Positions 1,991-15,775 are shown, numbered from the stretch's first letter. The stretch: DNA of 15,775 bases from Candidatus Aenigmatarchaeota archaeon (GCA_029932645.1 JAOZPR010000016.1:1-15775); one strand, 5' to 3'. Made by a program: numbers and translations. Notes: generated by a model not told the origin, from the sequence alone.

Positions 1991-2093
1991 TAATTCTCTC
2001 TAGCTATTTCGTAATTTTCATGTAATTGGAGAAAAGATTAAATGTGTTGCTATTTAAAAATAATTACACTAATAGTTGACAGTTGTGGTTAAA

Positions 2094-3008
2094 ATGAGTC
2101 GAACTTCAGATACTAATATTTATAATACAGGCCATTTTTTTCTGGGAGACTTGATTTTTCATGGTGGAATATCCTATCGTGATGTTCAAGCATATGTAAA
2201 TAAGAATACAACTTATCCTAAAGGTGCTGCTGTGGTCGGTTTTTTCGGTTCTGCGGGAATGGGCTATCGTGAAGATATAGATCTCAAAGAAAGTGCGTAC
2301 ACAATAGGAAAAGAGATAGCACTTCACGGAAAAGGATTTTCAAAAGATAAAAACCAACGACTTGTTTTATTAACTGGTGCGTGTCCTGGATTACCTCACG
2401 AAGCAGCGAAAGGAGCTTCTGATCATGGTGGTTTCGTGATTGGAGTTACAGCTGCGGACTCTTACGACACTCATAAAAAAATAGTTGGAGAAAATCTCGC
2501 ATTAGAACAAAAGAAAATATACAATATAATAGTTTGTCCTTCTTTTAAATTCCCAAAAACTGAGGAGAAGATAACACCAGATATAGTAAAGGACATGCTT
2601 AAATGGAGAAACCCGTTGAATACTGCTCTAAGTGATATTTCAATAGCAATAGGTGGGAATTATGGTACATTATATGAAATTTCCACTGCACTACATCCTG
2701 CATATTCTATTGTTGGTCTTTTTAGTCCAAACATTGAAAAATCTTTTGAAGAAATGCCAAGAGATAAACTAACAACCCCAGATTTTATTAATCTTTTTCA
2801 CGAAGAAATCGGACATAAAAAAAATGAACAAAAGATTGTATATACGAATAATCCTAGAAAATTAGTAGACGAACTTTATGAAGCATATAAAGAAAGAGAA
2901 GATAAAATTAAAAAAGAAAATATTTATCATCCATCTATGCAAAAATATATGGAAGAGCTGATTATAAATCCCCTTGAAGAAAGTATGGCTGGCTGGGGAG
3001 ACTTTTAA
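2094..3008 (+). CDS. SLOG/LOG-like (TIGR00725-type) Rossmann-fold nucleotide-binding protein with terminal extensions
   Basis: VGFFGSA, LLTGACPGLPHEAAKGA, GGFVIGV, RN..N...SD..IAIGGNYGTLYEI. ATG at 2094 preferred over TTG at 2076. Codon usage is A/T-rich. Confidence 0.8.
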   Translation: MSRTSDTNIYNTGHFFLGDLIFHGGISYRDVQAYVNKNTTYPKGAAVVGFFGSAGMGYREDIDLKESAYTIGKEIALHGKGFSKDKNQRLVLLTGACPGLPHEAAKGASDHGGFVIGVTAADSYDTHKKIVGENLALEQKKIYNIIVCPSFKFPKTEEKITPDIVKDMLKWRNPLNTALSDISIAIGGNYGTLYEISTALHPAYSIVGLFSPNIEKSFEEMPRDKLTTPDFINLFHEEIGHKKNEQKIVYTNNPRKLVDELYEAYKEREDKIKKENIYHPSMQKYMEELIINPLEESMAGWGDF

Positions 3009-3102
3009 AAGTCCGATATGTTCGTATTCATAAATACAAATAATTCTGCTAGACCGTGTCTTTAGAAAAATCATTTATATTTGTTCGGCTCAAAGAATAA
3101 TC

Positions 3103-3822
3103 ATGCGAACAGGACTTTTTGACTGGCTTTTTAATAATTACGGCGAATATGAGCAGCGCGAGAAATGGGACCGAATAGCTGACCAATGGTACGAGTTCAG
3201 ACACTATCCGCTGCTTGAAGTGAAAGACTTTGCCATGTTCATAGCAAAGCAGCCTGTTCCGCCGTGGCCGCTGAAAAAAAATGTTCTTGACATAGGAGCA
3301 GGCGCCGGCCGCAACTTGTTGCCGTTCAAAAATCATCATCTGTTTGCTTTGGATTTCTCTGGAAAGATGCTCAAGCAGGTTAAAAAATATTCCAAAAAAT
3401 TTGACCTGGACGCGACTATTGCAAAAGGTTCTGCAACAGCATTGCCATTCAAGGATAATTTCTTCGATGCCGTTTTGTGCGTGGCAACGCTGCACTGCGT
3501 TGAAACGAAAGAAGAGCGTTTAGAATGCCTGAAAGAAATGAAAAGGGTTATGAAACCGGGTGGGTTTGCTTTAATAAGCGTCTGGAACCGATGGCAATGG
3601 CGATTTTTTCCGAGAAACATATTTCTATCTGATGTCTATGTCCCATGGCACAGGCAAACCGAGGTCATAAAGCGTTTTTACCACACATTCAGCTATGGCG
3701 AGCTAGAGGAGCTCGCAAAAAAAGCGGGGTTTGATATCATAAAAACATATCCAGAGCTAAAATACTCAGGCTTCAAAAATTTCTCAGAGAATATATTTGC
3801 CATTGTGCAGAAGCCCGCGTAA
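3103..3822 (+). CDS. Class I SAM-dependent methyltransferase, Trm9/ALKBH8-like (putative tRNA wobble-uridine methyltransferase)
   Basis: VLDIGAGAGRN, ALDFS, LPFKDNFFDAVLCVATLH, RVMKPGG..LISVW, and the Trm9-type tail DVYVPW...RFYHTF...EL. The substrate is inferred. Confidence 0.85.
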   Translation: MRTGLFDWLFNNYGEYEQREKWDRIADQWYEFRHYPLLEVKDFAMFIAKQPVPPWPLKKNVLDIGAGAGRNLLPFKNHHLFALDFSGKMLKQVKKYSKKFDLDATIAKGSATALPFKDNFFDAVLCVATLHCVETKEERLECLKEMKRVMKPGGFALISVWNRWQWRFFPRNIFLSDVYVPWHRQTEVIKRFYHTFSYGELEELAKKAGFDIIKTYPELKYSGFKNFSENIFAIVQKPA

Positions 3823-3832
3823 TTGATTAGTT

Positions 3833-3971
3833 CTCGGTTGTGCTCAATCTTTCTATGAAAAATAGTAAAACAAAATAGTAAAACCAAAGGCAAGCCTGTC
3901 GGCTGATGCCTGAAAGAGAATAGCAAAGGCTCCAGCGTACAGCTGAAACCAGAGACTTCTGCCTTGCTTTT
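3833..3971 (+). repeat. Dispersed non-coding element, copy A (candidate structured RNA)
   Basis: Aligns along its length with the reverse complement of 13912-14012. GCTGAAACCAGAGACTTCTGCCTT (3942-3965) is identical in both. Contains a 13-bp tandem duplication (3859-3884) and a longer central insert. Confidence 0.9.
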
Positions 3972-4007
3972 ACAGCGGAGGTTTTGAAAACTGAGCATAA
4001 AAATCTT

Positions 4008-4015
4008 TTTAAATA
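4008..4015 (+). promoter_or_regulatory. Putative TATA box for tRNA-Leu
   Basis: TTTAAATA with an A-rich BRE-like tract upstream, ending 28 nt before the tRNA 5' end. Confidence 0.55.
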
Positions 4016-4042
4016 TTGTCTGAAATAATCTTCTACTGACAA

Positions 4043-4213
4043 GCGGAGGTACCCAAGTCTGGTCTAACCCTTTCCGCTGCGCGCAAAGCGTTAACGGAAA
4101 TGTTACAGAAAAAGGGGCTAGGCTTAGGTTATGTGACCTAAGGGCAATGCCCAGAAGCCGATGAGAAACCTAGTAGCTTAGTGCTTTCGTCAGTTCAAAT
4201 CTGGCCCTCCGCA
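4043..4213 (+). tRNA. tRNA-Leu(UAG) with two introns: about 4064-4111 (D-loop, about 20/21) and 4129-4167 (37/38)
   Basis: Acceptor GCGGAGG/CCTCCGC+A, D-stem CCC/GGG, anticodon stem CTAGG/CCTAG, loop CT-TAG-G^A, long variable arm, T-arm GTCAG-TTCAAAT-CTGGC. BHB helices TCTG/CAGA (intron 1) and CTTA/TGAG (intron 2). Confidence 0.88.
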
Positions 4214-4256
4214 TACATACACATATTATAATTATTTGTACGGTGGGTTGTTTCTA

Positions 4257-4700
4257 ATGATTCGAAAGGCCGTAGTCGGAATCGTATTTGATGGTAAGCA
4301 TTTTCTTGTCCTTCACCGCGTTCTCGGCTGGTCTGGCTGGGAATTTTCCAAAGGAGGTGTTGATGAAGGAGAAGACGAAGAGCAGGCCGTGCTGAGAGAA
4401 ATAAAAGAAGAGACTGGATTGGACGTCGAGATAATAGAGAAGGTTCCTTTTGTTATTAAATATGACTATCCTGAAGATTACAAGAAAAAATACGGCTTTG
4501 ATGAAACAGAACAAAGCGTATTCTTGGTAAAAACCACTGATAAAAAAGTAAGACTTTCCGAAGAGCATGATGAATATAAATGGCTTGACTACAATGAAGC
4601 CAGAGAAATTCTGACACACAGCAACCAAAAAGATGCGCTAGACAAGGCGTGGGAGATATTGAAAGGCGAGGAAAATGCTGATACGGAAAATAGTGAATAA
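4257..4700 (+). CDS. Nudix hydrolase (Ap4A hydrolase/RppH-like)
   Basis: Nudix box GGVDEGEDEEQAVLREIKEETGL and LSEEHDEYKW. ATG at 4257 preferred over TTG at 4236. Confidence 0.92.
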   Translation: MIRKAVVGIVFDGKHFLVLHRVLGWSGWEFSKGGVDEGEDEEQAVLREIKEETGLDVEIIEKVPFVIKYDYPEDYKKKYGFDETEQSVFLVKTTDKKVRLSEEHDEYKWLDYNEAREILTHSNQKDALDKAWEILKGEENADTENSE

Positions 4701-5142
4701 AGACGCGAAACAAGCAGCCAAACTTTTGCAGCAGGAGTTCGGCAGTGATTACAAGCCTTTCCACTTTACTGAATCGTGGCTGCTTGAGAAGATAACTTAT
4801 CCTAACGATTTGTTTCTCGTGGCTATGGAGGATAATAAGAAAAAAGACGAAAAGATTGTTGGCGTGGTCCGTGCGTGCATGGTTGACCTTGACCTTGCAG
4901 AACTTCGTAATATTGTTGTTCATAAAGAGCATCGTGGTGAAAAAATATCAGAAAACCTGATAAAAGAGATGCTTGCGCTGCTGAAGAAAAAGGGAATGCG
5001 CAAGGTTATAACAAGAACAAAGGCTGATAACAAACCAGCGCTGGCGCTCTTCCGTAAGCTAGGTTTCAAAAAGGAAGGCTATTTTCCAGAGCATTTTCGG
5101 CGCGGTGTGGATATTGTGCAGATGTATAAGTTCTTAAAATAA
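4675..5142 (+). CDS. GNAT-family N-acetyltransferase (RimI-like)
   Basis: IVVHKEHRGEKIS (motif A variant) and NKPALALFRKLGFKKEG. A GAGG RBS lies upstream; overlaps the Nudix gene end. Confidence 0.9.
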   Translation: MLIRKIVNKDAKQAAKLLQQEFGSDYKPFHFTESWLLEKITYPNDLFLVAMEDNKKKDEKIVGVVRACMVDLDLAELRNIVVHKEHRGEKISENLIKEMLALLKKKGMRKVITRTKADNKPALALFRKLGFKKEGYFPEHFRRGVDIVQMYKFLK

Positions 5143-5259
5143 AAAACACTGCAACTTTTCAGAATCTAAAAAAATATAAATGGCGCCTGCAATAACTATC
5201 TATGGTAACTTGTTCATAATCATGAACTTATCATGGAATTATATTCAGGAGGCAACAAA

Positions 5260-7554
5260 ATGCGAACAAAAAAGCGTGGAAGAAAATATGTGGTTTGGTT
5301 TAATGAAGTAGGTAGTAAGGACATCGGCTTGGTTGGCGGGAAAGTAGCATCTCTTGGCGAGATGATTCAAAAGGTAAATGTGCCTGTGCCAGGCGGTTTC
5401 GCAGTAACAGCTGATGCTTACCGATATTTTGTGAAAAAAAATAACTTGGACAAAATAATTAAAAAGGAGCTTAAAGGGCTGAATGTTCATAACCTCAGGA
5501 AGCTGCAAAAAGCAGGTATGAGAATAAGAAAAGATATAAAAAAAGCCAAGATTCCTGAAGACCTCAAAAAGGATATTATGGACCATTTCAAAAAGATGCA
5601 AAAGAGGTTCGGAAAAAATCTCATGGTTGCTGTCCGGTCGTCTGCAACAGCAGAAGACCTTCCTGATGCGTCTTTCGCAGGACAGCAGGAGTCGTATTTG
5701 CACGTAACTGAAAAGGATTTGGTGGAAAAGGTCAAATCCTGTTTTGCTTCCTTGTTTACAGACAGGGCCATATCATACAGAGAAGACAAACATTTTGACC
5801 ACTTCTCTGTTTATCTCTCTGTCGGCGTGCAAAAGATGGTCGACTCGCAAGCAGCCGGTGTTATGTTCACGATAGACCCTGACACGGGGTTTGAGAATAC
5901 CGTCGTCATAAACGGCTCTTGGGGGCTTGGTGATTATATTGTTCAGGGCAATGTCACGCCAGACGAATTTTATGTGTTCAAGCCCACGCTTGGTATATTG
6001 AAGAAAAGGCTCGGCTCAAAAAAAATCATGGAAGTACGGGCCGGAAAAGCCGGCGTTAAGAAAAAGCTTGTGCCAGCGAGCAAGCGAAAGGCCTTTGCCT
6101 TGTCTGACAAAGAAGTTAAACAACTGGCAAAATACGCGATAACAATAGAAAAACACTATGGAAGGCCTATGGACATAGAATGGGGAAAAGACGCTGACGG
6201 TCGACTATATGTTTTACAGGCGCGTCCAGAAACCGTGCAGTCAATGAAAAAGAAAAATGTTGTTGAAACATACAAGCTTCAACAAAAGTCAAAAATTCTT
6301 ACGCAAGGCCAGGCCATTGGCCGAAAAATCGGTGCGGGCAAGGCCAATGTCATAAAGAATGTTTCTGGTATAAGAAACTTCAAGAAGGGGCAAGTTCTGG
6401 TAACAGAGATAACAGATCCTGACTGGGAACCGATAATGAAGATAGCTTCAGCCATTGTAACAGAGAAAGGTGGCCGTACCAGTCATGCGGCAATAGTGTC
6501 AAGGGAGTTGGGAATACCTGCTATCATCGGCGCAGAAGACGCGACCAAAAAGATAAAACAAGGGCAGACTGTGACAGCGGACTGCACATCAGACCCAGGC
6601 ACAGTGTGGTCAGGCGCATTGAAATATAAAATAGAAAAAAGAAGCATAGAAAAACTGCCCAAGACCAAGACAGACATATTAGTTAATATAGGAATACCTG
6701 AAGAGGCATTGGAAGCATCGCGTCTGCCTGTTGATGGTGTAGGACTTGCTCGCGAGGAGTTCATAATAAACTCATACATAGCAGAGCATCCGCTTGCAAT
6801 GATAGAACAGGGCCGTGGCAACGAGTTTACAGAGAAACTTGCCGAGGGCGTAGCAGAACTGGTTGCTCCATTCTATCCAAGGCCTGTGATAGTGCGGCTA
6901 TCTGACTTCAAGTCCAATGAATATGCAAACCTGAAGGGCGGCAAGAAGTTTGAGCCCGACGAACACAACCCAATGATTGGCTGGCGTGGAGCATCGCGTT
7001 ACATAGACCCCGCGTTCGAGCAAGCGTTCCGCCTCGAGTGCAGGGCAATCAAAAAGGTCCGCGATGAAATGGGCTTAACAAATATGATAGTAATGATACC
7101 GTTCTGCCGAACGCTTGAAGAGGCGGAGAAAACAATTAAGATAATGGCAAGCGAGGGTCTGCGACGCGGCAAAAACGGCCTCAAGGTTTTTGTCATGGCT
7201 GAGATACCATCTAATATTGTTCTTGCAGACAAATTCTCTCAATACTTTGACGGCTTCTCCATAGGTTCAAATGATTTGACACAGCTTACGCTCGGAATAG
7301 ACAGGGACTCTGAAAAGCTCGCAGGCACCGCAGACGAGCGAAACCCTGCTGTGATGCGGCTTATCGAGCAGCTCATCCCCACCGCACACAAATACAGAAG
7401 AAAGGTCGGGATATGCGGCCAAGCACCGTCAGATTTTCCAGAGTTCGTGGAATTCCTCATAAAAAACAAGATAGACTCCATATCAGTGAACCCAGATGTG
7501 GCTGTGAAAACAAAGATTATGGTCGCAAAGATGGAGAAAAAGTTGAGGAGATAA
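5260..7554 (+). CDS. ppsA: Phosphoenolpyruvate synthase (pyruvate, water dikinase)
   Basis: VGGK, VAVRSSATAEDLPDASFAGQQES, phospho-His motif GGRTSHAAIVSRELG, NPMIGWRGASRY, FSIGSNDLTQLTLG, GICGQAPSD. AGGAGG RBS before ATG 5260 (track start 5233). Confidence 0.97.
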   Translation: MRTKKRGRKYVVWFNEVGSKDIGLVGGKVASLGEMIQKVNVPVPGGFAVTADAYRYFVKKNNLDKIIKKELKGLNVHNLRKLQKAGMRIRKDIKKAKIPEDLKKDIMDHFKKMQKRFGKNLMVAVRSSATAEDLPDASFAGQQESYLHVTEKDLVEKVKSCFASLFTDRAISYREDKHFDHFSVYLSVGVQKMVDSQAAGVMFTIDPDTGFENTVVINGSWGLGDYIVQGNVTPDEFYVFKPTLGILKKRLGSKKIMEVRAGKAGVKKKLVPASKRKAFALSDKEVKQLAKYAITIEKHYGRPMDIEWGKDADGRLYVLQARPETVQSMKKKNVVETYKLQQKSKILTQGQAIGRKIGAGKANVIKNVSGIRNFKKGQVLVTEITDPDWEPIMKIASAIVTEKGGRTSHAAIVSRELGIPAIIGAEDATKKIKQGQTVTADCTSDPGTVWSGALKYKIEKRSIEKLPKTKTDILVNIGIPEEALEASRLPVDGVGLAREEFIINSYIAEHPLAMIEQGRGNEFTEKLAEGVAELVAPFYPRPVIVRLSDFKSNEYANLKGGKKFEPDEHNPMIGWRGASRYIDPAFEQAFRLECRAIKKVRDEMGLTNMIVMIPFCRTLEEAEKTIKIMASEGLRRGKNGLKVFVMAEIPSNIVLADKFSQYFDGFSIGSNDLTQLTLGIDRDSEKLAGTADERNPAVMRLIEQLIPTAHKYRRKVGICGQAPSDFPEFVEFLIKNKIDSISVNPDVAVKTKIMVAKMEKKLRR

Positions 7555-7580
7555 AAACTTTGTTCTAATACTGAGTCGGT

Positions 7581-7679
7581 CTAAGAAAAAATAAGGACAT
7601 CGTTTATTAGAAGATATGCTCCGATTAGTAGTATGATAGTTATGATAATGATTACTGACCAGTCCAGTTTTGAAGCCAT
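7581..7679 (-). CDS. Putative 32-aa single-pass membrane microprotein
   Basis: MASKLDWSVIIIITIILLIGAYLLINDVLIFS*. GAGG RBS-like sequence upstream. It fills the ppsA-pcm gap, and an AT-rich TATA-like tract at about 7709-7720 is shared with divergent pcm. Confidence 0.65.
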   Translation of the reverse strand: MASKLDWSVIIIITIILLIGAYLLINDVLIFS

Positions 7680-7745
7680 CTCAACGCCTCTTGATTACTT
7701 ATAGCTTAACTTAAATATAAAGTTTTTTCTTTCTTATTAAGAATT

Positions 7746-8402
7746 ATGACAGATGACATGCTCGCCGAGAAAAAAGAGATGCTCATAAAACATCTTGTCA
7801 AGGCAGGACACCTGAGAACAGAACGCGTTATCCAGGCTTTTCGTCGCGTTCCGCGCGAGGCGTTCGTGCCAGAGCATCTTATAGACTATGCTTATGTTGA
7901 TGAACCCCTGCCGATTGGCGAGGGCCAGACTATATCACAACCGCTAACTATAGCAGATATGACAGAAGCACTGGAGCCAAGGCCTGGCCAAAAGATACTG
8001 GAAATAGGCGCAGGCTCAGGATACCAAGCTGCAATACTTGCAGAAATAGTCGGAAGCAAAGGAAAGGTCATATCTGTGGAAAGGGTTGAAAAGCTCGCCA
8101 AAGAAACAAGACAGCGCATTGCTCAGCTTGGCTACAAGAATATAAAAATAGTCACAGGCGACGGCTCGCTCGGCTATGCTAGGAAAGCGCCATATGACAG
8201 GATTATCGTGACGTGTGCAGCGCCGTTTGTGCCAGAACCACTTAAGGAGCAGTTAAAAATCAGTGGTGTGATGGTGATACCAGTCGGTTCTTGGCTGCAG
8301 CAGATATTCAAGATAAGAAAAACCGCTGCAGGCTTCGAGCAGAAAAGCATTGGCTTTTACCAGTTCGTGCCGCTCATAGGTGAGCATGGTTTCAATCCTT
8401 AG
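7746..8402 (+). CDS. pcm: Protein-L-isoaspartate(D-aspartate) O-methyltransferase
   Basis: VPREAFVP, AYVDEPLPIGEGQTISQP, ILEIGAGSGYQAA, GDGSLG, APYDRIIVT, FVPLIG. Confidence 0.96.
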   Translation: MTDDMLAEKKEMLIKHLVKAGHLRTERVIQAFRRVPREAFVPEHLIDYAYVDEPLPIGEGQTISQPLTIADMTEALEPRPGQKILEIGAGSGYQAAILAEIVGSKGKVISVERVEKLAKETRQRIAQLGYKNIKIVTGDGSLGYARKAPYDRIIVTCAAPFVPEPLKEQLKISGVMVIPVGSWLQQIFKIRKTAAGFEQKSIGFYQFVPLIGEHGFNP

Positions 8403-8405
8403 AAA

Positions 8406-9395
8406 CTAATCCTTAGAAACTATTGAGCGGTGGAACAAGAACCCGGACACGAGTAGTATGCCAATGACTATCAATTCTATAATTTTAAAGAGGCCGAAAT
8501 TAATTATTATTTCTTCAGCAGCAAATTCAAGAAAACCCATCCATAATATTTCATAAGCAATAAGGATAGAGAATGAAATAAATGAAAAGAAGGACAAAAG
8601 CATGGTAATGGATTTCTCGCTTGTCAGCATCCCAGCAACAGAAACCACAAGCAAAGAGAAAAAGCTGAAAACGTAAAAGAAGCTGCTGAAATGTGTTAGA
8701 ATATTATATACCAGAATTATCATCGACAGGGAAAATAAAGAATATTCCCAGGGTCTTTTTATTCTAACTGCTTTTACGGTCTGCGCTGGACCAAGCTTGA
8801 GCAATGGTGTTTCTTTGTAGAACAACAGGAAAGACACCATCAACAAAATGTTAAAATAAACAGAATTTATTCTCGGATAATAAAACATCAGGCTCATTAT
8901 TAACTGTATAATGTATATACAACAGGCTGCAATGCCCAAGACACTTATAACCCTGAACTCTCTAAATAGCAGAGCAAATGCTTCAAGTGCGACCAACAGG
9001 CACAAAATACTTGTCATGATCCAGAAGTTCAACCCGGAAAAATATATGGGTATGATGAAAATCAGCGGAATCAGCAGCTGAATAAAACTCTTATCTTTGA
9101 TATACGCAACTACGTGAGTCAAAAAAATAACAAATAGAACTATCTGCAAACCATGAAATGCTACTAGATTAGCACCAGAAAGTTCAAGAAACGCAATAGC
9201 AGCAGCAAACAAAAATGCCAGTGACAAAAACAAAAAGCTGTTTGCCAGCTTGTAATATCTTTTTCCTATTCTAAAGGATAACAGGAAGCAAACAAGAAAA
9301 GTAATAAAATTCATCAATATGTTTGCCAGTTGCAACAAAGCCATGATATAGTATTGTTCTGCCTTTTTAAAAACTTTTTTGCTCTTTTTGTTCAT
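8406..9395 (-). CDS. Polytopic membrane protein of unknown function
   Basis: About 10-11 hydrophobic segments, no recognisable motif. Lies directly downstream of lysS on the same strand. The start could be ATG 9344. Confidence 0.75.
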   Translation of the reverse strand: MNKKSKKVFKKAEQYYIMALLQLANILMNFITFLVCFLLSFRIGKRYYKLANSFLFLSLAFLFAAAIAFLELSGANLVAFHGLQIVLFVIFLTHVVAYIKDKSFIQLLIPLIFIIPIYFSGLNFWIMTSILCLLVALEAFALLFREFRVISVLGIAACCIYIIQLIMSLMFYYPRINSVYFNILLMVSFLLFYKETPLLKLGPAQTVKAVRIKRPWEYSLFSLSMIILVYNILTHFSSFFYVFSFFSLLVVSVAGMLTSEKSITMLLSFFSFISFSILIAYEILWMGFLEFAAEEIIINFGLFKIIELIVIGILLVSGFLFHRSIVSKD

Positions 9396-9410
9396 ATGTC
9401 ATATTTTTTA

Positions 9411-11021
9411 TCAAACCGTCTCGAAAATCTTTTTGGCCCTTTCAAGGCCTATCGCAAGAATTAGCGGCGCAAGCCTCGGGCCGCGCGCACTGCCGAGCAG
9501 GGCAGCGTAAGCACCAGTAAAAAAGTCTTTCACAGAGATGTCATTTGACTTCGCTATCTCAAAGAATTTTGAGTAGAGTTCGTCCTCTGTTATACTTGGT
9601 CGCAGCTCTTCTGCAAGGCTATGAAGCGCAGCACGCTGCTTCTCTGTTAATACTATTTTTTCTTTTTCCTCTTCTGTCTCAGCTAACCAGCTTCTAACAT
9701 ATTCGAACCTTTTCTCCAGTTCTTCCTTTTGCTCATTGCTCATTTTTTCTGGCAGGTGTTCTGTCCTGCGTAAGATATCTTTTACTATATCTTTGTCCTT
9801 TACCAGTTTCACGAAGCCGGCTAAGAGCCTGTAAGGTATCCTTATTTGTGGCTTTTCTGGACTTAGAAAATAGACATACTCGTAGAGCCGCTTGGCATGA
9901 GCAATTTCCTTGTCCGAGAGTTTCTTAGCAAGTGCCTCATCTTCATTATAATAGATTCTGGACAAATTGTCTACTTCGTCCATATATTTTGGTATCTCGT
10001 AAACATCAACAACCCTGGTCGTGCTGAGCCGTTTCAAGAACAGCAGACGTATGCTCTCCTTGCTGCCATACCTAAGCCAGACCTGCGGTGTGAACACATT
10101 GCCTTTACTCTTGGATATTTTTTGTCCTCCTCTCTCGACAAAGAGCTCATAGAATGAATGAACAGGTGGCTCGTAGCCAAGTATCTGCCTGCATATCTCG
10201 TCATTCACAGCAACACTGTCAGCAATATCCTTTCCATAGGCCTCATAATTTATCTTGAGAGCACGCCAACGCGCAGCAAACTCTACTTTCCACGAGAGCT
10301 TGCCATCTCTTATGGAACATTCACCTTCATGTCCGCAACCATTAATAACAATCTCCTCGCCAGTGTTTGAATCCTTGCCAACAAAAGAAGAGTCGCACTT
10401 GTAGAGAACCTTTTTTTCATCAGGCAAAAATTTGTAAGCCCGAGTCGTGTATATCCGGCCACACTTCTCGCATATCGGCAGGAATGGTAGTTGTTGCGTG
10501 TATTTGTCCTGGTTTGTCAGCTTGCGTATTATTTCACCAGCCTTTTGTGCATTCGCGAGTATTTCTATTATCTCCTTGTCAAGCAGGCCGTTTCTATAAG
10601 CGTCGTCGCCTGTCTGTAAATTGTATTTAACACCTATCTTCTCGAATGCATCAATAAGCAGGGACGAAACATGCTCACCGAAGTTTTTATGACATCCAAA
10701 AGGGTCCTCTATCATGGAAACAGGCTTGCCTATGTCTTTTCGCAGCGAAGCAGGAAACCCAGCAGGCACCTTTCGCAGACCATCCCTGTTGTCCGAAAAA
10801 GCGATGAGCTCGCTCTTATAACCAAGTTCTTTCAGAGCCAGCGCAACAACAAATGACCTTATTCCGTCACCAGCAGAGCCCACGTGCGGAATGCCGCTTG
10901 CTCCGAGCCCCATCTCTGTGCGATAAACATCTACTGCTCTGCCTAGCTTTTTTTCACGCTCGACAATTTCTTTTGCTATTTTATCAGCCCAAAATATATT
11001 ATCCATTCCTTTCTTGTTCAT
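9411..11021 (-). CDS. lysS: Lysine--tRNA ligase, class I
   Basis: FWAD, GASGIPHVGS (HIGH-like), DGLRKVP, Zn-binding CEKCG, GKLSWKVEFAARW, EAYGKD, KISKSKGN (KMSKS-like), C-terminal GPRL. Confidence 0.97.
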   Translation of the reverse strand: MNKKGMDNIFWADKIAKEIVEREKKLGRAVDVYRTEMGLGASGIPHVGSAGDGIRSFVVALALKELGYKSELIAFSDNRDGLRKVPAGFPASLRKDIGKPVSMIEDPFGCHKNFGEHVSSLLIDAFEKIGVKYNLQTGDDAYRNGLLDKEIIEILANAQKAGEIIRKLTNQDKYTQQLPFLPICEKCGRIYTTRAYKFLPDEKKVLYKCDSSFVGKDSNTGEEIVINGCGHEGECSIRDGKLSWKVEFAARWRALKINYEAYGKDIADSVAVNDEICRQILGYEPPVHSFYELFVERGGQKISKSKGNVFTPQVWLRYGSKESIRLLFLKRLSTTRVVDVYEIPKYMDEVDNLSRIYYNEDEALAKKLSDKEIAHAKRLYEYVYFLSPEKPQIRIPYRLLAGFVKLVKDKDIVKDILRRTEHLPEKMSNEQKEELEKRFEYVRSWLAETEEEKEKIVLTEKQRAALHSLAEELRPSITEDELYSKFFEIAKSNDISVKDFFTGAYAALLGSARGPRLAPLILAIGLERAKKIFETV

Positions 11022-11225
11022 CTTGTCACCATTTATCTAAATTTTAATGGCCATCAAATATATATAAATTGAATCGTTTCAAAGACAAAAATAAACAGTG
11101 CTAAACCTATGAGAAATCAAAGACGCTTGTGTTTTTGGCTACTCGCTGTAAACAAATCCATAGAATAAAAATGGCTGCACAAATACTTAAATCTTTTTAT
11201 TGTTTGTGTTGCAAAAATAAGGTAT

Positions 11226-12398
11226 ATGTTTGAGTCCATAACATTTGAGAGTATAAGTTTCGTAGTTTTCATACTATTCCTCCTCGCGGTTGTGCATAGG
11301 GACAGAAAAAAGATAAAAATCGAGGGCATAATGATAATGCGACGAACGCGGAAAGGCAGGGATTTCATAGACCGTGTTGCAAGGCTGTGCCCGCGATGCT
11401 GGAACTCTCTTGCCATCGTTGCTGTGCTTCTTTCGCTTGTGGTCATATGTGTTGGCCCGTTCTTTCTCTGGAATCAGGCCGCGTCTATTGCAGCGGGTGA
11501 GGCAAAGGAAGGCGTGCGGCTAATACTACCGTGGGCTGTTTCTGAGGTTGAATCAAGGCCAGGCATTCTCCTGCTACCGTGGTGGCTGTGGGTTATTGCA
11601 GCATTAAGCGTCATGATACCACATGAGCTTTCGCATGGAATAGTAAGCAGGGTAGAAAAAATACCTATCAGTTCGCTTGGCTGGGTATTATTTCTCTTCC
11701 TGCCTGGCGCATTCGTGGAGCCAGATGAGAAAAAACTAAAAAAAGCAAAAAAATCTACGCGGCTCAAGATATATGCAGCCGGCTCATTCGCGAATTTTAT
11801 TGTCGCTTTGCTGGTCTCAGGAATTGTTTTGCTGATTAATCTAAGCATGTTGACACCAAACGGCATAATACCAGCAGGCCTTATAGCAGACTATCCGTGC
11901 TACCAGGCAAATGTTACTGGTGTTATTCAGGGAATAGCTGGCCAACCTGTCCTGGTCGCGGAAGATGTCTCGAGGATATTGTCAGAAATATCAGTAGGTT
12001 CAAACATCACGATAAGGACAGATGAAGGGTTATTTAATATAACCACTGCCGAAAATCCTGACCAAGCAAACAAATCATTCATAGGCATAGCAGGGCCATT
12101 TGGCCAAAGCTATGCACTTAAAGACAATATCAAAGCGAAATTCGGCGACGTCATGCCGCACATAGAAACGCTGAAGATGATACTGTTCTGGGTATTCCTC
12201 ATCAATGCCGGTGTTGGCATCGTGAACCTGCTTCCTCTAAAACCATTGGATGGCGGCATAATATTCGAAGAAATCATCAGCGACATGACAACGAACGCAA
12301 GAAAAGTCACAGGCGCAGTATCCATAGCAATGTTGCTACTACTTTTATTCAACCTATTCGGACCTTACATAGTTAGTTTTGTTTCTTCGGTCGTGTAG
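11226..12398 (+). CDS. Site-2 protease family (M50) intramembrane metalloprotease with PDZ-like insert
   Basis: HELSH (HExxH), GAFVEPD, IYAAGSFAN, NLLPLKPLDGG. Confidence 0.95.
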   Translation: MFESITFESISFVVFILFLLAVVHRDRKKIKIEGIMIMRRTRKGRDFIDRVARLCPRCWNSLAIVAVLLSLVVICVGPFFLWNQAASIAAGEAKEGVRLILPWAVSEVESRPGILLLPWWLWVIAALSVMIPHELSHGIVSRVEKIPISSLGWVLFLFLPGAFVEPDEKKLKKAKKSTRLKIYAAGSFANFIVALLVSGIVLLINLSMLTPNGIIPAGLIADYPCYQANVTGVIQGIAGQPVLVAEDVSRILSEISVGSNITIRTDEGLFNITTAENPDQANKSFIGIAGPFGQSYALKDNIKAKFGDVMPHIETLKMILFWVFLINAGVGIVNLLPLKPLDGGIIFEEIISDMTTNARKVTGAVSIAMLLLLLFNLFGPYIVSFVSSVV

Positions 12399-12422
12399 CA
12401 AAAGTCATGAATTTGATGAGAA

Positions 12423-12977
12423 CTACACCTCTCTCTGGTGACCGGCAACAAACAGATAATATTTCTGGTTGCCCTGCATTTCTTCCATGACCCGCTTTTC
12501 TATTACCTTGAGTGGGTCAGGCATGAGTTTAACACGGTTCCTTATGTCCTCAAAGCTCTCAAACGGCTTTTTTCTTCTCTCTGCCAATATGTTTTCAACG
12601 TGCTTTTTGCCTATTCCTGGCAAAAGCTCAAACTGGTGCATCCTTGGCGTAATCATGCCGGCATGATTGAAGAAGTTTACAAAGCGTTTTTCATGCTTCA
12701 AAAGCATGCCTTGTAAAATCTCGGGAAGCGAGGAAAAGGCAACATTTGTCAGGTCTTTCTGGTATATCTTGCGCTTGATATACTTAACCTTGTCTCTTTT
12801 TTCAGGACCAATATACAGACGCTCGCCGAGTTTCACAGATGTATCAGGCTTTACAGCTAATTCCAGTAAAGAAAAAAATTGCTCACCAATAGCCTGGGCT
12901 ATGGGTTCTGACCTTCTGTCGCCAGCATGCCCTGCTGACAAAAAATCCAGTACTATAGCATATTCTTCTCTTCTCAT
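12423..12977 (-). CDS. DUF655 family putative RNA-binding protein
   Basis: EEYAIVLDFL, AQAIGEQFFSLLEL, FVNFFN, RMHQFELLPGIGKK, PFESFEDI. Conserved position after rpl21e-rpo4. ATG at 12977 preferred. Confidence 0.92.
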   Translation of the reverse strand: MRREEYAIVLDFLSAGHAGDRRSEPIAQAIGEQFFSLLELAVKPDTSVKLGERLYIGPEKRDKVKYIKRKIYQKDLTNVAFSSLPEILQGMLLKHEKRFVNFFNHAGMITPRMHQFELLPGIGKKHVENILAERRKKPFESFEDIRNRVKLMPDPLKVIEKRVMEEMQGNQKYYLFVAGHQREV

Positions 12978-13094
12978 AGACCATAACCCCAAACGCCGCA
13001 AGCATCATTATCAGTTAATAATTTAGTTAATAGTTTAGCAGTCAACAATTTAGTCGCGCGTTCTTCACATCCCCACATAACTCAGACTAATAAC

Positions 13095-13421
13095 TTATAC
13101 CACGGAATTTACAATGTCAACTATCTTCTTGATTTCGTCCTTCTTCAGATTCGTTCTCTCCTTGGCAAATATTATCTTAACCTCATCTTCTGTGGTGGGT
13201 AGGTTGTTTATTATCAATGCACAATGCCTTGGCTTAAGTATAGCTATTTTCGACAGCCCAGACATCAGTTTTTCCAATTTTGCCTTTGTAAGAGTCGAGG
13301 TCTTTTCAAGATATTCCAAACAAATCTTTTGTTCATAAACAAAATCTCTCTCCTTCTTTCTCTCTTCTAGTATCTTCTTGGCCTCTGATATGGATATTAC
13401 TTTTTCTTCCAAGACCTTCAT
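13095..13421 (-). CDS. rpo4: DNA-directed RNA polymerase subunit Rpo4 (F)
   Basis: ISISEAKKIL, YEQKICLEYL, IINNLPTTEDEVKIIFAKE. GGAGGT RBS before ATG 13421. Syntenic with rpl21e. Confidence 0.92.
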   Translation of the reverse strand: MKVLEEKVISISEAKKILEERKKERDFVYEQKICLEYLEKTSTLTKAKLEKLMSGLSKIAILKPRHCALIINNLPTTEDEVKIIFAKERTNLKKDEIKKIVDIVNSVV

Positions 13422-13422
13422 T

Positions 13423-13716
13423 TTAAAGACCTCCCTTGGCAACAGCTGGATATAGGTGTTGTGCCCTTGAAATTATTCTCTTTGTTTTTTTGCGGTCTTT
13501 GACCTCAACAATATAAGCCTCGCCTCTCTTAGCAACAATTCTTCCTGTCATAGCATGAAACTTTGGGTGCGGAAAAGACTTTGCGCCACTATGAATATTT
13601 ACATGAACCTTGTCACCAATATTAAATTTTCTCAGTATTGCGGTAATGGTCGGCTTTTTCTTCACCTTAAGTTTATGTCTTGTTCTACTTCTAGATCCTC
13701 CGGATTTTCTCACCAT
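13423..13716 (-). CDS. rpl21e: 50S ribosomal protein L21e
   Basis: S.G.RSRTRHKL, FNIGDKVHVNI, PHPKFHAMTGRIVAKRGEAY, KRIISRAQHL. AGGAGGAG RBS. Confidence 0.96.
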   Translation of the reverse strand: MVRKSGGSRSRTRHKLKVKKKPTITAILRKFNIGDKVHVNIHSGAKSFPHPKFHAMTGRIVAKRGEAYIVEVKDRKKTKRIISRAQHLYPAVAKGGL

Positions 13717-13911
13717 ACTAGCTCCTCCTTTTTGTGTTACAAATATACCCTATGCTAACTACATCTAAACAATTGCCTTTCTGATTGTCCTGCTCTTTTA
13801 ATTTATGGAAAAAAAGCTTAAAAAGCTTAAAATACGCAGGACTGTCGCAATACAAAAATTGACCAATAACTGGTTTATGTACCCCAAACGCAGTATGACA
13901 TAAGAAGTTAA

Positions 13912-14012
13912 AAAAGTAAGGCAGAAGTCTCTGGTTTCAGCCGTGTGTTGCAGCCACGACAGGCTTCGCCCTTGGTTTTACCTTTATCATACAAAGATTG
14001 AGAACAATCGAG
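13912..14012 (-). repeat. Dispersed non-coding element, copy B (candidate structured RNA)
   Basis: The - strand reads CTCGATTGTTCTCAATCTTTGTATGATAAAGGTAAAACCAAGGGCGAAGCCTGTCGTGGCTGCAACACACGGCTGAAACCAGAGACTTCTGCCTTACTTTT. It is homologous to 3833-3971, begins 1 nt after the pus10 stop, and ends in a T-tract. Confidence 0.9.
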
Positions 14013-14013
14013 C

Positions 14014-15249
14014 TTATTTTAACTTACCTATTTTAATGACATCCAGTTGTTCGCAGACGCATTTTGTGCCGAGCAACTCTGCCACAGATGGTCGCGTCCT
14101 GCCATTGTCTCCAGATATTAACTCCTTAATATAGGTACCCGCGACTGTCTCAACAGTGAGCAGAAATCTTCTTTTGTCTTTGTATTTTGTCCTCAGTTTC
14201 CGTACCTTCCTTTTCCTCCGCCTGTTGGCGCGCCTGTGCGAAACGCGCGATGGTGTCCGCTGCTGGATTTCGCCAACGAGCTTCTTCAGCTTTTTAAGGT
14301 CCTTTCTGCTGATGTCCTTACCTGTCTTGACAAGTGCCGAGTATGTCTTCAAGGGTCTTGCTTGCTTCAGCGCCCGCACCTCTTTTATACCGCTTTTTCG
14401 CAGCCGCCTGACCTGCACACTCTTGCTCTTGTTTATTTTTTTCTGCAGCGCCTTCAGCTGCAGCCGCCTCTTGCTGGGTTCTGTGATTTCCAGCACAAAA
14501 GGTCGCCATCCGAGACAGCGCGCATCTATGTCCTCGCGACCCGCGCCGTGAAACTTATGCCACTCGCCGCGCGTCGCAGCCATGACAGGCTTTGCGATAA
14601 TCTGCTGCACGCTTGTTTTGTACTTGCCAGAAGGCCATATGGTCTGCGGTATGCCACGGCGCAGCTTCTGATACTCTCCGTATATGAACAAAGGGTTCTT
14701 CTCCACTTTGACACGGCCCGTGGAAAAATTAAGAATGATATTAATATCCGGGCTTTCCAGATCTGCGCGCTTACCAAGTGCGCGCTCCACGCGCTTGCCA
14801 GTTTCCCTGTTTATCTCTGCCTTTATCGGCTCACAAAAATCTATGCCTACTTTCTCCCACAGGCGCTCTTCCCTATCAATCAAATCAGCATTCAGCTTTG
14901 TGCCAACCAGAAACGTATTAAACTCGACACCTTTGACAGCTTTCTTTATCTTTTTTGTCCACTTATCAATGCCCTCAAAAAGCCCGCCACAGACAATACA
15001 TTTTGACTTCTTCTTGGACCGCTTCACGGTTTTTTTAAGCTCTTCCGAGTGAAACTGCTCTGTGATGTTCGCCTTGTCTATATCTATCTTGCGCTGAGCG
15101 TCAGCATTCATGAGAAAGGCCTTTCGCAGAATGCGGCCGCGCTCGTCATTACTATAGCCTTCAAGGAGTTGGGCAAACTGCCTGCCAAGACAATGATCAC
15201 AGACATAGCCCAACTTGAGAATCATTCCAACCTTTTCCATCACACGCAT
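14014..15249 (-). CDS. pus10: tRNA pseudouridine(54/55) synthase Pus10
   Basis: N-terminal CDHCLGRQFA and CIVCGG, THUMP region, catalytic FHGAGREDIDARCLG..RPFVLEI, IQQRTPSRVSHRRA, GTYIKELISGDNGRTRPSV. Alternative start ATG 15240. Confidence 0.96.
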   Translation of the reverse strand: MRVMEKVGMILKLGYVCDHCLGRQFAQLLEGYSNDERGRILRKAFLMNADAQRKIDIDKANITEQFHSEELKKTVKRSKKKSKCIVCGGLFEGIDKWTKKIKKAVKGVEFNTFLVGTKLNADLIDREERLWEKVGIDFCEPIKAEINRETGKRVERALGKRADLESPDINIILNFSTGRVKVEKNPLFIYGEYQKLRRGIPQTIWPSGKYKTSVQQIIAKPVMAATRGEWHKFHGAGREDIDARCLGWRPFVLEITEPSKRRLQLKALQKKINKSKSVQVRRLRKSGIKEVRALKQARPLKTYSALVKTGKDISRKDLKKLKKLVGEIQQRTPSRVSHRRANRRRKRKVRKLRTKYKDKRRFLLTVETVAGTYIKELISGDNGRTRPSVAELLGTKCVCEQLDVIKIGKLK

Positions 15250-15294
15250 AGTTATTTGTTAGGTTCGTAAGATATAAAAAAAGAAGAGATAGGT

Positions 15295-15648
15295 GTGAAA
15301 CTCAGATTGCTTTACAAAGCACCCCCTGTGGAACCTTGGGGACGTCTATCTGACAAGTATGAAGAAGTACCTGGAACGGTAGAATATGAGATTCATAGGC
15401 ATGGCATACCATATAATAAGGGGGAAATACCTTGGGGAAGTAAAAGAGCCTTTGTTGACGACCTTGTTTTAATTGTAGACAATGGATCTGGTGTACCAAA
15501 AACTCTTGAAAAAGCTCTAAAAAGATTCAAAGACGTTGCCGTTTTCGCTAAGCATACTGGACCAGCTGAGGATTTGGGAAGATTCTTTACTAAAAAAGAA
15601 ATTCCAGAAGGGTATGAGAAAGTGTGGCTTGACAAGGTTCCCTATTAA
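15295..15648 (+). CDS. Hypothetical protein
   Basis: 117-aa ORF with a GTG start and plausible amino-acid composition, divergent from pus10. No recognisable motif. Confidence 0.6.
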   Translation: MKLRLLYKAPPVEPWGRLSDKYEEVPGTVEYEIHRHGIPYNKGEIPWGSKRAFVDDLVLIVDNGSGVPKTLEKALKRFKDVAVFAKHTGPAEDLGRFFTKKEIPEGYEKVWLDKVPY

Positions 15649-15710
15649 ATTCAAACTAAAAGATAGGGTAAACTCTTAGCGATGAAAGACTCTTTTTCTT
15701 CGTTTTTTAT

Positions 15711-15775
15711 TTAGTTATCTTTAGTTTTAGTGACTTTTCTGTTAAATCTTATTTTTCTCACAACGCCACAGGGCT
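15711..15775 (-). CDS. 3' end of a gene entering from the right edge; possibly a zinc-ribbon tail such as RNase P subunit Rpp21
   Basis: ...PCGVVRKIRFNRKVTKTKDN*. Only the CG..R..R pattern is suggestive; too short to assign. Confidence 0.3.
   Translation of the reverse strand, partial: PCGVVRKIRFNRKVTKTKDN

Follow-up and report, generated by a model that had tools for sequence, protein, structure and literature searches.

The 15,775-nucleotide contig of Candidatus Aenigmatarchaeota archaeon analysed here (GCA_029932645.1, JAOZPR010000016.1), which we call the window, carries two related non-coding elements: copy A, behind a gene for a Trm9-like methyltransferase, and copy B, behind pus10. 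On balance we favour the reading that both are copies of a dispersed, non-autonomous transposon of about 150 nt, which is built of inverted repeats, resembles a MITE (miniature inverted-repeat transposable element) and is now decaying. We are led to this reading because the element is multi-copy, lies between genes in both orientations, has complementary arms and imperfect terminal repeats, and has reduced counterparts in a sister species. Its membership among the MITEs is unproven, and the element is MITE-like in its features; its sequence family is new, whereas elements of this kind are already known. An earlier note on this DNA had weighed a new noncoding RNA or 3′ untranslated region (3′-UTR) family, perhaps linked to tRNA modification, against a non-autonomous mobile element inserting behind stop codons, and a mobile element is the option that fits best.

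On this reading a transposase acting in trans would have copied the element as DNA, and that enzyme may since have been lost or may be missing from the assembly. Its ends and internal boxes are putative transposase-binding sites, most of the insertions are probably old, and the hairpins that can be drawn from it may be a by-product of the inverted repeats rather than a selected RNA fold.

A dispersed inverted-repeat family

The source genome (G000) is an archaeal bin of 719 kb that is 89% complete; it was compared with a congeneric genome (G001, the sister species) and with a further genome (G002). Iterated profile searches of G000 recovered 23 loci, and with a sequence-only family model (R1), for which 17 copies were used, 24 loci of G000 yielded 25 matches, while G001 had 7 matches and G002 none. 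With an additional copy on a record (L147) that extends contig C9 past its end, what had been described from two copies is a family of 24 loci plus one beyond a contig end. On leave-one-out scoring, 13 of the 23 loci remain at or above 40 bits; two weak matches were discarded, one inside the Trm5 gene (C5, E 0.036), the other located on C12 (E 0.27). Chromosomal clustering was rejected, as the copies are spread over many scaffold chains.

Beyond the genus, the R1 model revealed no multi-copy family in 68 genomes of the order (48 candidates scored per genome); nine of these gave single weak matches that by eye are composition or coding noise, and a sample of the class gave one weak match in one genome (22 candidates scored per genome). 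BLAST of copy B against 40 relatives returned nothing longer than 36 nt outside G000. Motif pattern scans of viral contigs (three) gave no matches; those of metagenomes gave none and then six. Of these six, L144 and L147 do not differ from G000 in the overlap, and the remaining four cover the short motif only. The single match from a pattern scan of species genomes was rejected as a terminator-like hairpin, and no tRNA intron matched the family model.

Whole copies, flanks included, measure 142-162 nt and are non-coding and intergenic, a few of them overlapping the end of an open reading frame (ORF). In 12 copies the left ends can be aligned gap-free across some 28 nt; in motif matching and in an alignment of extended copies, the right end reads as an imperfect inverted copy of the left. 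The left side holds two occurrences of an A-rich box, which is found a single time, and inverted, on the right. For the outer terminal inverted repeat, 32 of 40 cross-copy pairs exceed their own shuffles, if modestly (15.7 versus 13.4). The parts of the element found in the window are as follows.

3833..3971 (+): copy A, comprising left arm, inner part and right arm; 61 bits against the family model, 47 bits with this copy excluded from the model
3859..3884 (+): tandem duplication of the left-arm A-rich box, private to copy A (sequence and family alignment)
3942..3965 (+): 24-mer that is the same in copy B and unlike the family consensus (sequence comparison)
3980..3991 (+): what likely remains of copy A's right terminal inverted repeat, placed by eye in the extended-copy alignment
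13912..14012 (−): copy B, with its left end at 14009 and an internal deletion relative to A; 63 bits, 45 bits with this copy excluded
13879..13903 (−): likely right-end extension of copy B, decayed, placed by eye in the extended-copy alignment

Much of the earlier description of the two copies holds. Copy A begins 10 nt past the Trm9-like stop codon at 3822 and copy B 1 nt past the pus10 stop codon at 14014; the blocks common to both are present in the sequence, as is the identical 24-mer, which in copy B occupies 13941-13918 on the minus strand. The family left end in copy A is 3836, positions 3833-3835 being common to copy B only. The element continues some 20-30 nt beyond the 3′ limit originally given, to a decayed right end, of which copies A and B keep only traces at the outer side. 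The U-tract interpreted as a tail is instead the complement of the A-rich left arm and part of the inverted box. Both copies are present in run X2, where a G interrupts the U-tract of copy A; in a 1717-nt piece of that run, two of seven substitutions and the sole indel are located in copy A, and each of these three differences is towards the family consensus. Two inverted-repeat pairs, of 44 nt at 86% and 41 nt at 78% identity, head the list of inverted repeats in the window. Identity between copies A and B, measured over 102 aligned columns, is 85%, against a family median of 57%.

Folding and covariation

The differences between A and B had been held to preserve pairing on the sense strand only, yet both copies fold at least equally well in antisense (z scores of −1.85 sense and −2.01 antisense for A, and of −0.46 and −1.69 for B), and averaged over 20 copies z is −0.48 on the sense and −0.69 on the antisense strand. 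The statement that the element is not a recognised RNA was borne out by a covariance-model scan, which gave no Rfam match in the window, and there was none at seven further loci. RNAalifold predicted no pairs from 20 copies. Across 17 copies, the three helices originally proposed are paired in 62.6% of cells, a value equalled by 178 of 500 shuffles, and display no covariation excess, 94 of 500 shuffles having a score as high; pairing in the inner hairpin is 39%, and the columns of the 5′ hairpin are 76% paired. In the family's own register pairing rises to 77.4%, again with no covariation excess (346 and 405 of 500 shuffles were as high). The arms do pair more strongly than shuffled arms in 18 copies, at −16.6 versus −10.7 kcal/mol in sense and −16.3 versus −11.6 in antisense. 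In the same 18 copies, arms pair no better with the partner from their own copy than with one from another copy (p 0.34 sense, 0.80 antisense), and this lack of an own-partner advantage is the pattern of an ancestral palindrome decaying from a common master.

With no covariation above shuffles, an outcome that the earlier note had itself named as refuting the RNA model, and no strand-specific folding, a new noncoding RNA or 3′-UTR family is not supported. We regard as unlikely the broader version of that idea, in which the family is a multi-copy structured RNA, or a 3′-UTR or terminator element, transcribed either by read-through from the gene ahead of it or, where a TATA box is symmetric, from that box's mirror side. 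It would accommodate the ungapped left end, the pairing of the 5′ hairpin columns, the same-strand gene that precedes 13 of 23 loci, and a spacing of 22 nt to a TATA box at four loci (see below), which equals a transcription-start distance and places a purine at the first base in all four cases. It is opposed by the missing Rfam matches, by fold scores and helices no better than those of shuffled sequences, and by the loss or gutting of the element at most sister-species sites.

Neighbouring genes

The 23 loci with an upstream ORF comprise 13 on the same strand as the element and 10 that are head-to-head with a gene on the opposite strand, by crude ORF calls. Insertion behind stop codons, as the earlier note had it, is not specific: the gaps between genes are short, and copies are found in either orientation. 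Of the 23 loci, 10 do not lie behind an own-strand stop. The genes beside further copies include those for a pilin, Elp3, a phosphoribosyltransferase, a major facilitator superfamily transporter, ThyX, a PIN-ATPase, TBP, SRP54 and PPDK, with others and unknowns. Tabulating the upstream genes of further copies, a check that the earlier note had itself set for its proposed link to tRNA-modifying enzymes, shows these genes to be unrelated: beyond the two trigger copies, one of 11 same-strand upstream genes modifies tRNA. This is elp3, which brings the total to 3 of 13.

We consider it very improbable that the element regulates a tRNA-modification regulon. Genes for the Trm9-like protein, Pus10 and Elp3 each lie upstream of a copy, but at 21 of 24 loci the upstream neighbour is a different gene or is lacking, and in G001 the orthologues of all three genes are without an intact copy. 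The neighbour table largely refutes this reading.

History of the copies

At 55,843 fourfold sites G000 and G001 are 45% identical, which leads to an expected identity of 64% to the ancestor per lineage; the 5′ part of the copies matches the consensus at 63%, near this expectation for neutral drift. Sixteen orthologous sites could be mapped in G001 by both flanks. Fifteen of them score at most 15 bits or have no match, and the sixteenth, at the TBP locus, carries a full copy. By eye, six of the fifteen retain remnants, including a 5′ piece at pus10, and four are apparently empty (C37, C1, C16 and C17b), with blurred borders. Four sites hold a full or near-full copy in both species, namely those at TBP, at thioredoxin reductase, on C30 and on L147.

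Genome-wide, 37 tracts are at least 92% identical between G000 and G001, against a median of 76.5%, and several of them lie in coding DNA, for example at TBP; some are rRNA or tRNA, or possibly binning errors. Examples in G000 are:

C33:4851-6651
C36:151-3001
C40:1-1501
C14:17051-17801

These tracts likely reflect recent exchange between the two species. The TBP copy is within such a tract, and its sharing may therefore reflect later interspecies exchange; a general link between copies and exchange tracts was rejected, since only 1 of the 37 touches a copy. Because A and B are so much more alike than the family median, it is likely that A was copied from B, or was homogenised or converted with it, after the species split. 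Gene order between A and B is not inverted in G001.

Comparison with known mobile elements

Prokaryotic MITEs, including those of Sulfolobus and Haloquadratum, are characterised in PMC10969869 as non-coding, AT-rich, multi-copy, intergenic elements of less than 500 bp with inverted ends and the capacity to form stem-loops. The present family shares all of these properties: it is short, well below 500 bp, as well as AT-rich, non-coding, multi-copy and intergenic, its terminal inverted repeats are recognisable if imperfect, and it folds into stem-loops. It departs from MITEs as portrayed there in that no direct repeats were seen, no partner insertion sequence (IS) was found, the ends are imperfect and interrupted, and the copies are far more diverged.

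Several observations weigh against a decaying MITE-like transposon. In none of 6 copies was a target-site duplication seen at the ends as placed, the best partial duplications among them being 6/9, or 7/8 with a 3-nt shift; MITE target-site duplications fade with age (PMC10969869), and the present copies are probably old. The outer inverted repeat is interrupted by a length difference of about 7 nt. The 3′ arm matches the consensus at 73%, above the neutral expectation, although this block had been picked as the conserved one. The comparison of G000 with G001 yielded no clean filled/empty pair with exact borders, and copies are much better kept in G000 than in G001, even at sites that predate the split.

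Nor was a parent element found, in assemblies that are about 90% complete. Y1 and TnpB domains are absent from G000, and DDE_Tnp_1, IS110, reverse transcriptase, resolvase, IS1595 and IS630 were not found in G000-G002. IS1 was rejected as a parent, its transposase occurring in 0 of 301 genomes of the phylum; the first bases of its ends bear a superficial likeness to those of the element, and the IS1A locus of E. coli reaches only 3.1 bits at best on the left-end profile. IS6 was likewise rejected: IS6-like genes occur in 45 of 301 genomes, none of them G000-G002, and 0 of 25 such loci have matching ends. Pfam scans of 107 of the 119 G000-specific and 123 of the 164 G001-specific ORFs returned no partner transposase, some 630 shared proteins lying outside the scan. 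Derivation from IS200/IS605 (as a palindrome-associated transposable element, PATE) or a TnpB guide RNA was rejected, given the lack of a shared flank tetranucleotide and of Y1 and TnpB in G000.

A possible single-strand hairpin site and gene exchange

The long bulged palindrome with its modular inner repeats also recalls hairpins that are recognised in single-stranded DNA. The family could be such a site, similar to a repetitive extragenic palindrome or bacterial interspersed mosaic element (REP/BIME) or to attC, acted on by an HUH or tyrosine recombinase and marking points of gene exchange; we think this improbable. In its favour, the copies at C7, C9, C34c and L147 border genes found in one of the two species only. 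Gene-content breaks are nonetheless not enriched at the element (9 of 21 element gaps versus 103 of 325 others by crude ORF calls, p 0.34), no conserved tetranucleotide lies beside either end, neither a Y1 transposase nor a tyrosine recombinase is found in the G000 assembly, the repeated box does not belong to any dif-like site, and the near-identical interspecies tracts all but one avoid the copies. A cassette hotspot was rejected on the same p value.

REP/BIME elements are palindromes of 20-40 nt with a GTAG or CGTC tag, and together with the terminal-inverted-repeat families they are associated with RAYT/TIRYT transposases (PMC3733652). Like both groups, the present copies are lineage-restricted palindromes near or over gene ends, and some ORFs end inside them; unlike REP/BIME they are about 150 nt long and few in number, with no GTAG or CGTC end tag and no Y1 transposase in the genome. 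An integron attC or Xer-type site was rejected, the copies being dispersed, the XerA-like locus of G001 carrying no element array, and dif-like matches being absent; a dif-like site, or one used by Xer-exploiting integrative elements (IMEX), is without support.

Two further observations concern recombination and variable sites in these genomes. The tyrosine recombinase XerA, not found in the G000 assembly, is present in G001 and G002, and its absence may be an assembly gap. Beside rtcB (L147:466-1374; G001 L115:10276-15306), one genome has an AbiEii-type gene and the other an 831-aa gene and a 2.4-kb block with a second, facing element copy.

Spacing to TATA boxes

Among the head-to-head copies, the left end could be measured against the TATA 8-mer of the divergent gene at seven loci, the left end or the TATA box not being placeable at the other 3 of 10. 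In four of the seven (C16, C34b, C41 and C14) it lies exactly 22 nt away; the other three distances are 13, 18-19 and 25 nt. On the gene side, the distance from TATA box to start is also 22 nt (ATG at +23 for TBP and PPDK). The nominal probability of four equal distances in seven, within a 40-nt window, is about 0.0006, which overstates the case because the test is post hoc, three loci were left out, the TATA box at C14 was assigned from the ATG rather than from the script's top score, and that at C41 is a tie.

The spacing fits either guidance of insertion by TBP/TFB or a transcript that starts on the TATA box's mirror side, and it leaves the copies behind stop codons unexplained. In the first of these, which we hold to be doubtful, a mobile element moved by an enzyme not yet recognised would be directed by TBP/TFB to a point 22 nt from the TATA box that mirrors the start site, and so be kept out of genes in a very compact genome; copies that had landed upstream would persist, unlike those that had landed on the gene side. 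Four copies directly upstream of tRNA genes agree with this, as does the spacing itself. The pattern was noticed only after looking, however, and depends in part on the omitted loci and soft TATA choices just mentioned; copies behind stop codons appear by eye to have no such anchor, distances from the right end to the downstream TATA box vary, and the responsible enzyme is not known. In yeast, TBP and Brf1 guide Ty3 integration at RNA polymerase III start sites, as reported in PMC6673722. The likeness goes no further than a possible constant spacing of the insertion from a site bound by TBP: Ty3 as described there is a eukaryotic long-terminal-repeat retrotransposon with an integrase, whereas no reverse transcriptase or integrase was found for the archaeal element. 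In literature represented mostly by titles and the beginnings of abstracts, we found no description of the family or of TATA-guided insertion of an archaeal MITE.

Other features of the window and of these genomes

The genes flanking the two copies are:

3103..3822 (+): gene for a Trm9-like S-adenosylmethionine-dependent methyltransferase, upstream of A (PDB and NCBIfam comparisons)
4043..4213 (+): downstream of A, likely a gene for tRNA-Leu(UAG) that has two introns and a TATA box of its own (read by eye)
13423..13716 (−): rpl21e, downstream of B (ORF call)
14014..15249 (−): pus10, upstream of B (TIGR01213, 425 bits; cut-off 200)

The C-terminal half of the Trm9-like protein has the tRNA methyltransferase 5CM2 as its best PDB match (E 2.5e-7), and the protein reaches no NCBIfam cut-off. 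The likely tRNA-Leu(UAG) gene, missed by both ARAGORN and cmscan, is conserved in G001 and G002.

Elsewhere in the window, a SLOG-family gene (1991-3067) follows an intron-containing tRNA (1880-1990); the main contig of run X2 skips it, and G001 has another gene in its place. The 3′ end of this tRNA is a variable slot. At the far end, 15278-15775 is 89.6% identical to G001, well over its surroundings; the 117-aa ORF that it contains matches nothing in Pfam.

A second repeat family, which looks unrelated and consists of direct units of about 40 nt with a conserved 9-mer, is common to G000 and G001 and has a 17-nt look-alike in common with the A/B core. Five different tRNA genes contain near-identical introns (up to 99% over 110 nt). 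Their positions are:

Second repeat family, G000: C14:7889, C18:2012, C19:13726, C29:8194, C39:26
Second repeat family, G001: L084, L089, L098, L118, L125
Near-identical tRNA introns, G000: C14:19431, C26:536, C33:342, C37:32433, C42:1911

Implications

If TBP/TFB-guided insertion were true, it would suggest transposon targeting by these factors in archaea, a prokaryotic counterpart of promoter-guided integration of the Ty3 type. As a decaying MITE-like transposon, the family makes a more modest addition, namely that small mobile DNA would once have spread in a burst through a streamlined DPANN lineage in which no transposase is detectable, and that a regulatory RNA can be mimicked by two decayed copies of a mobile element.

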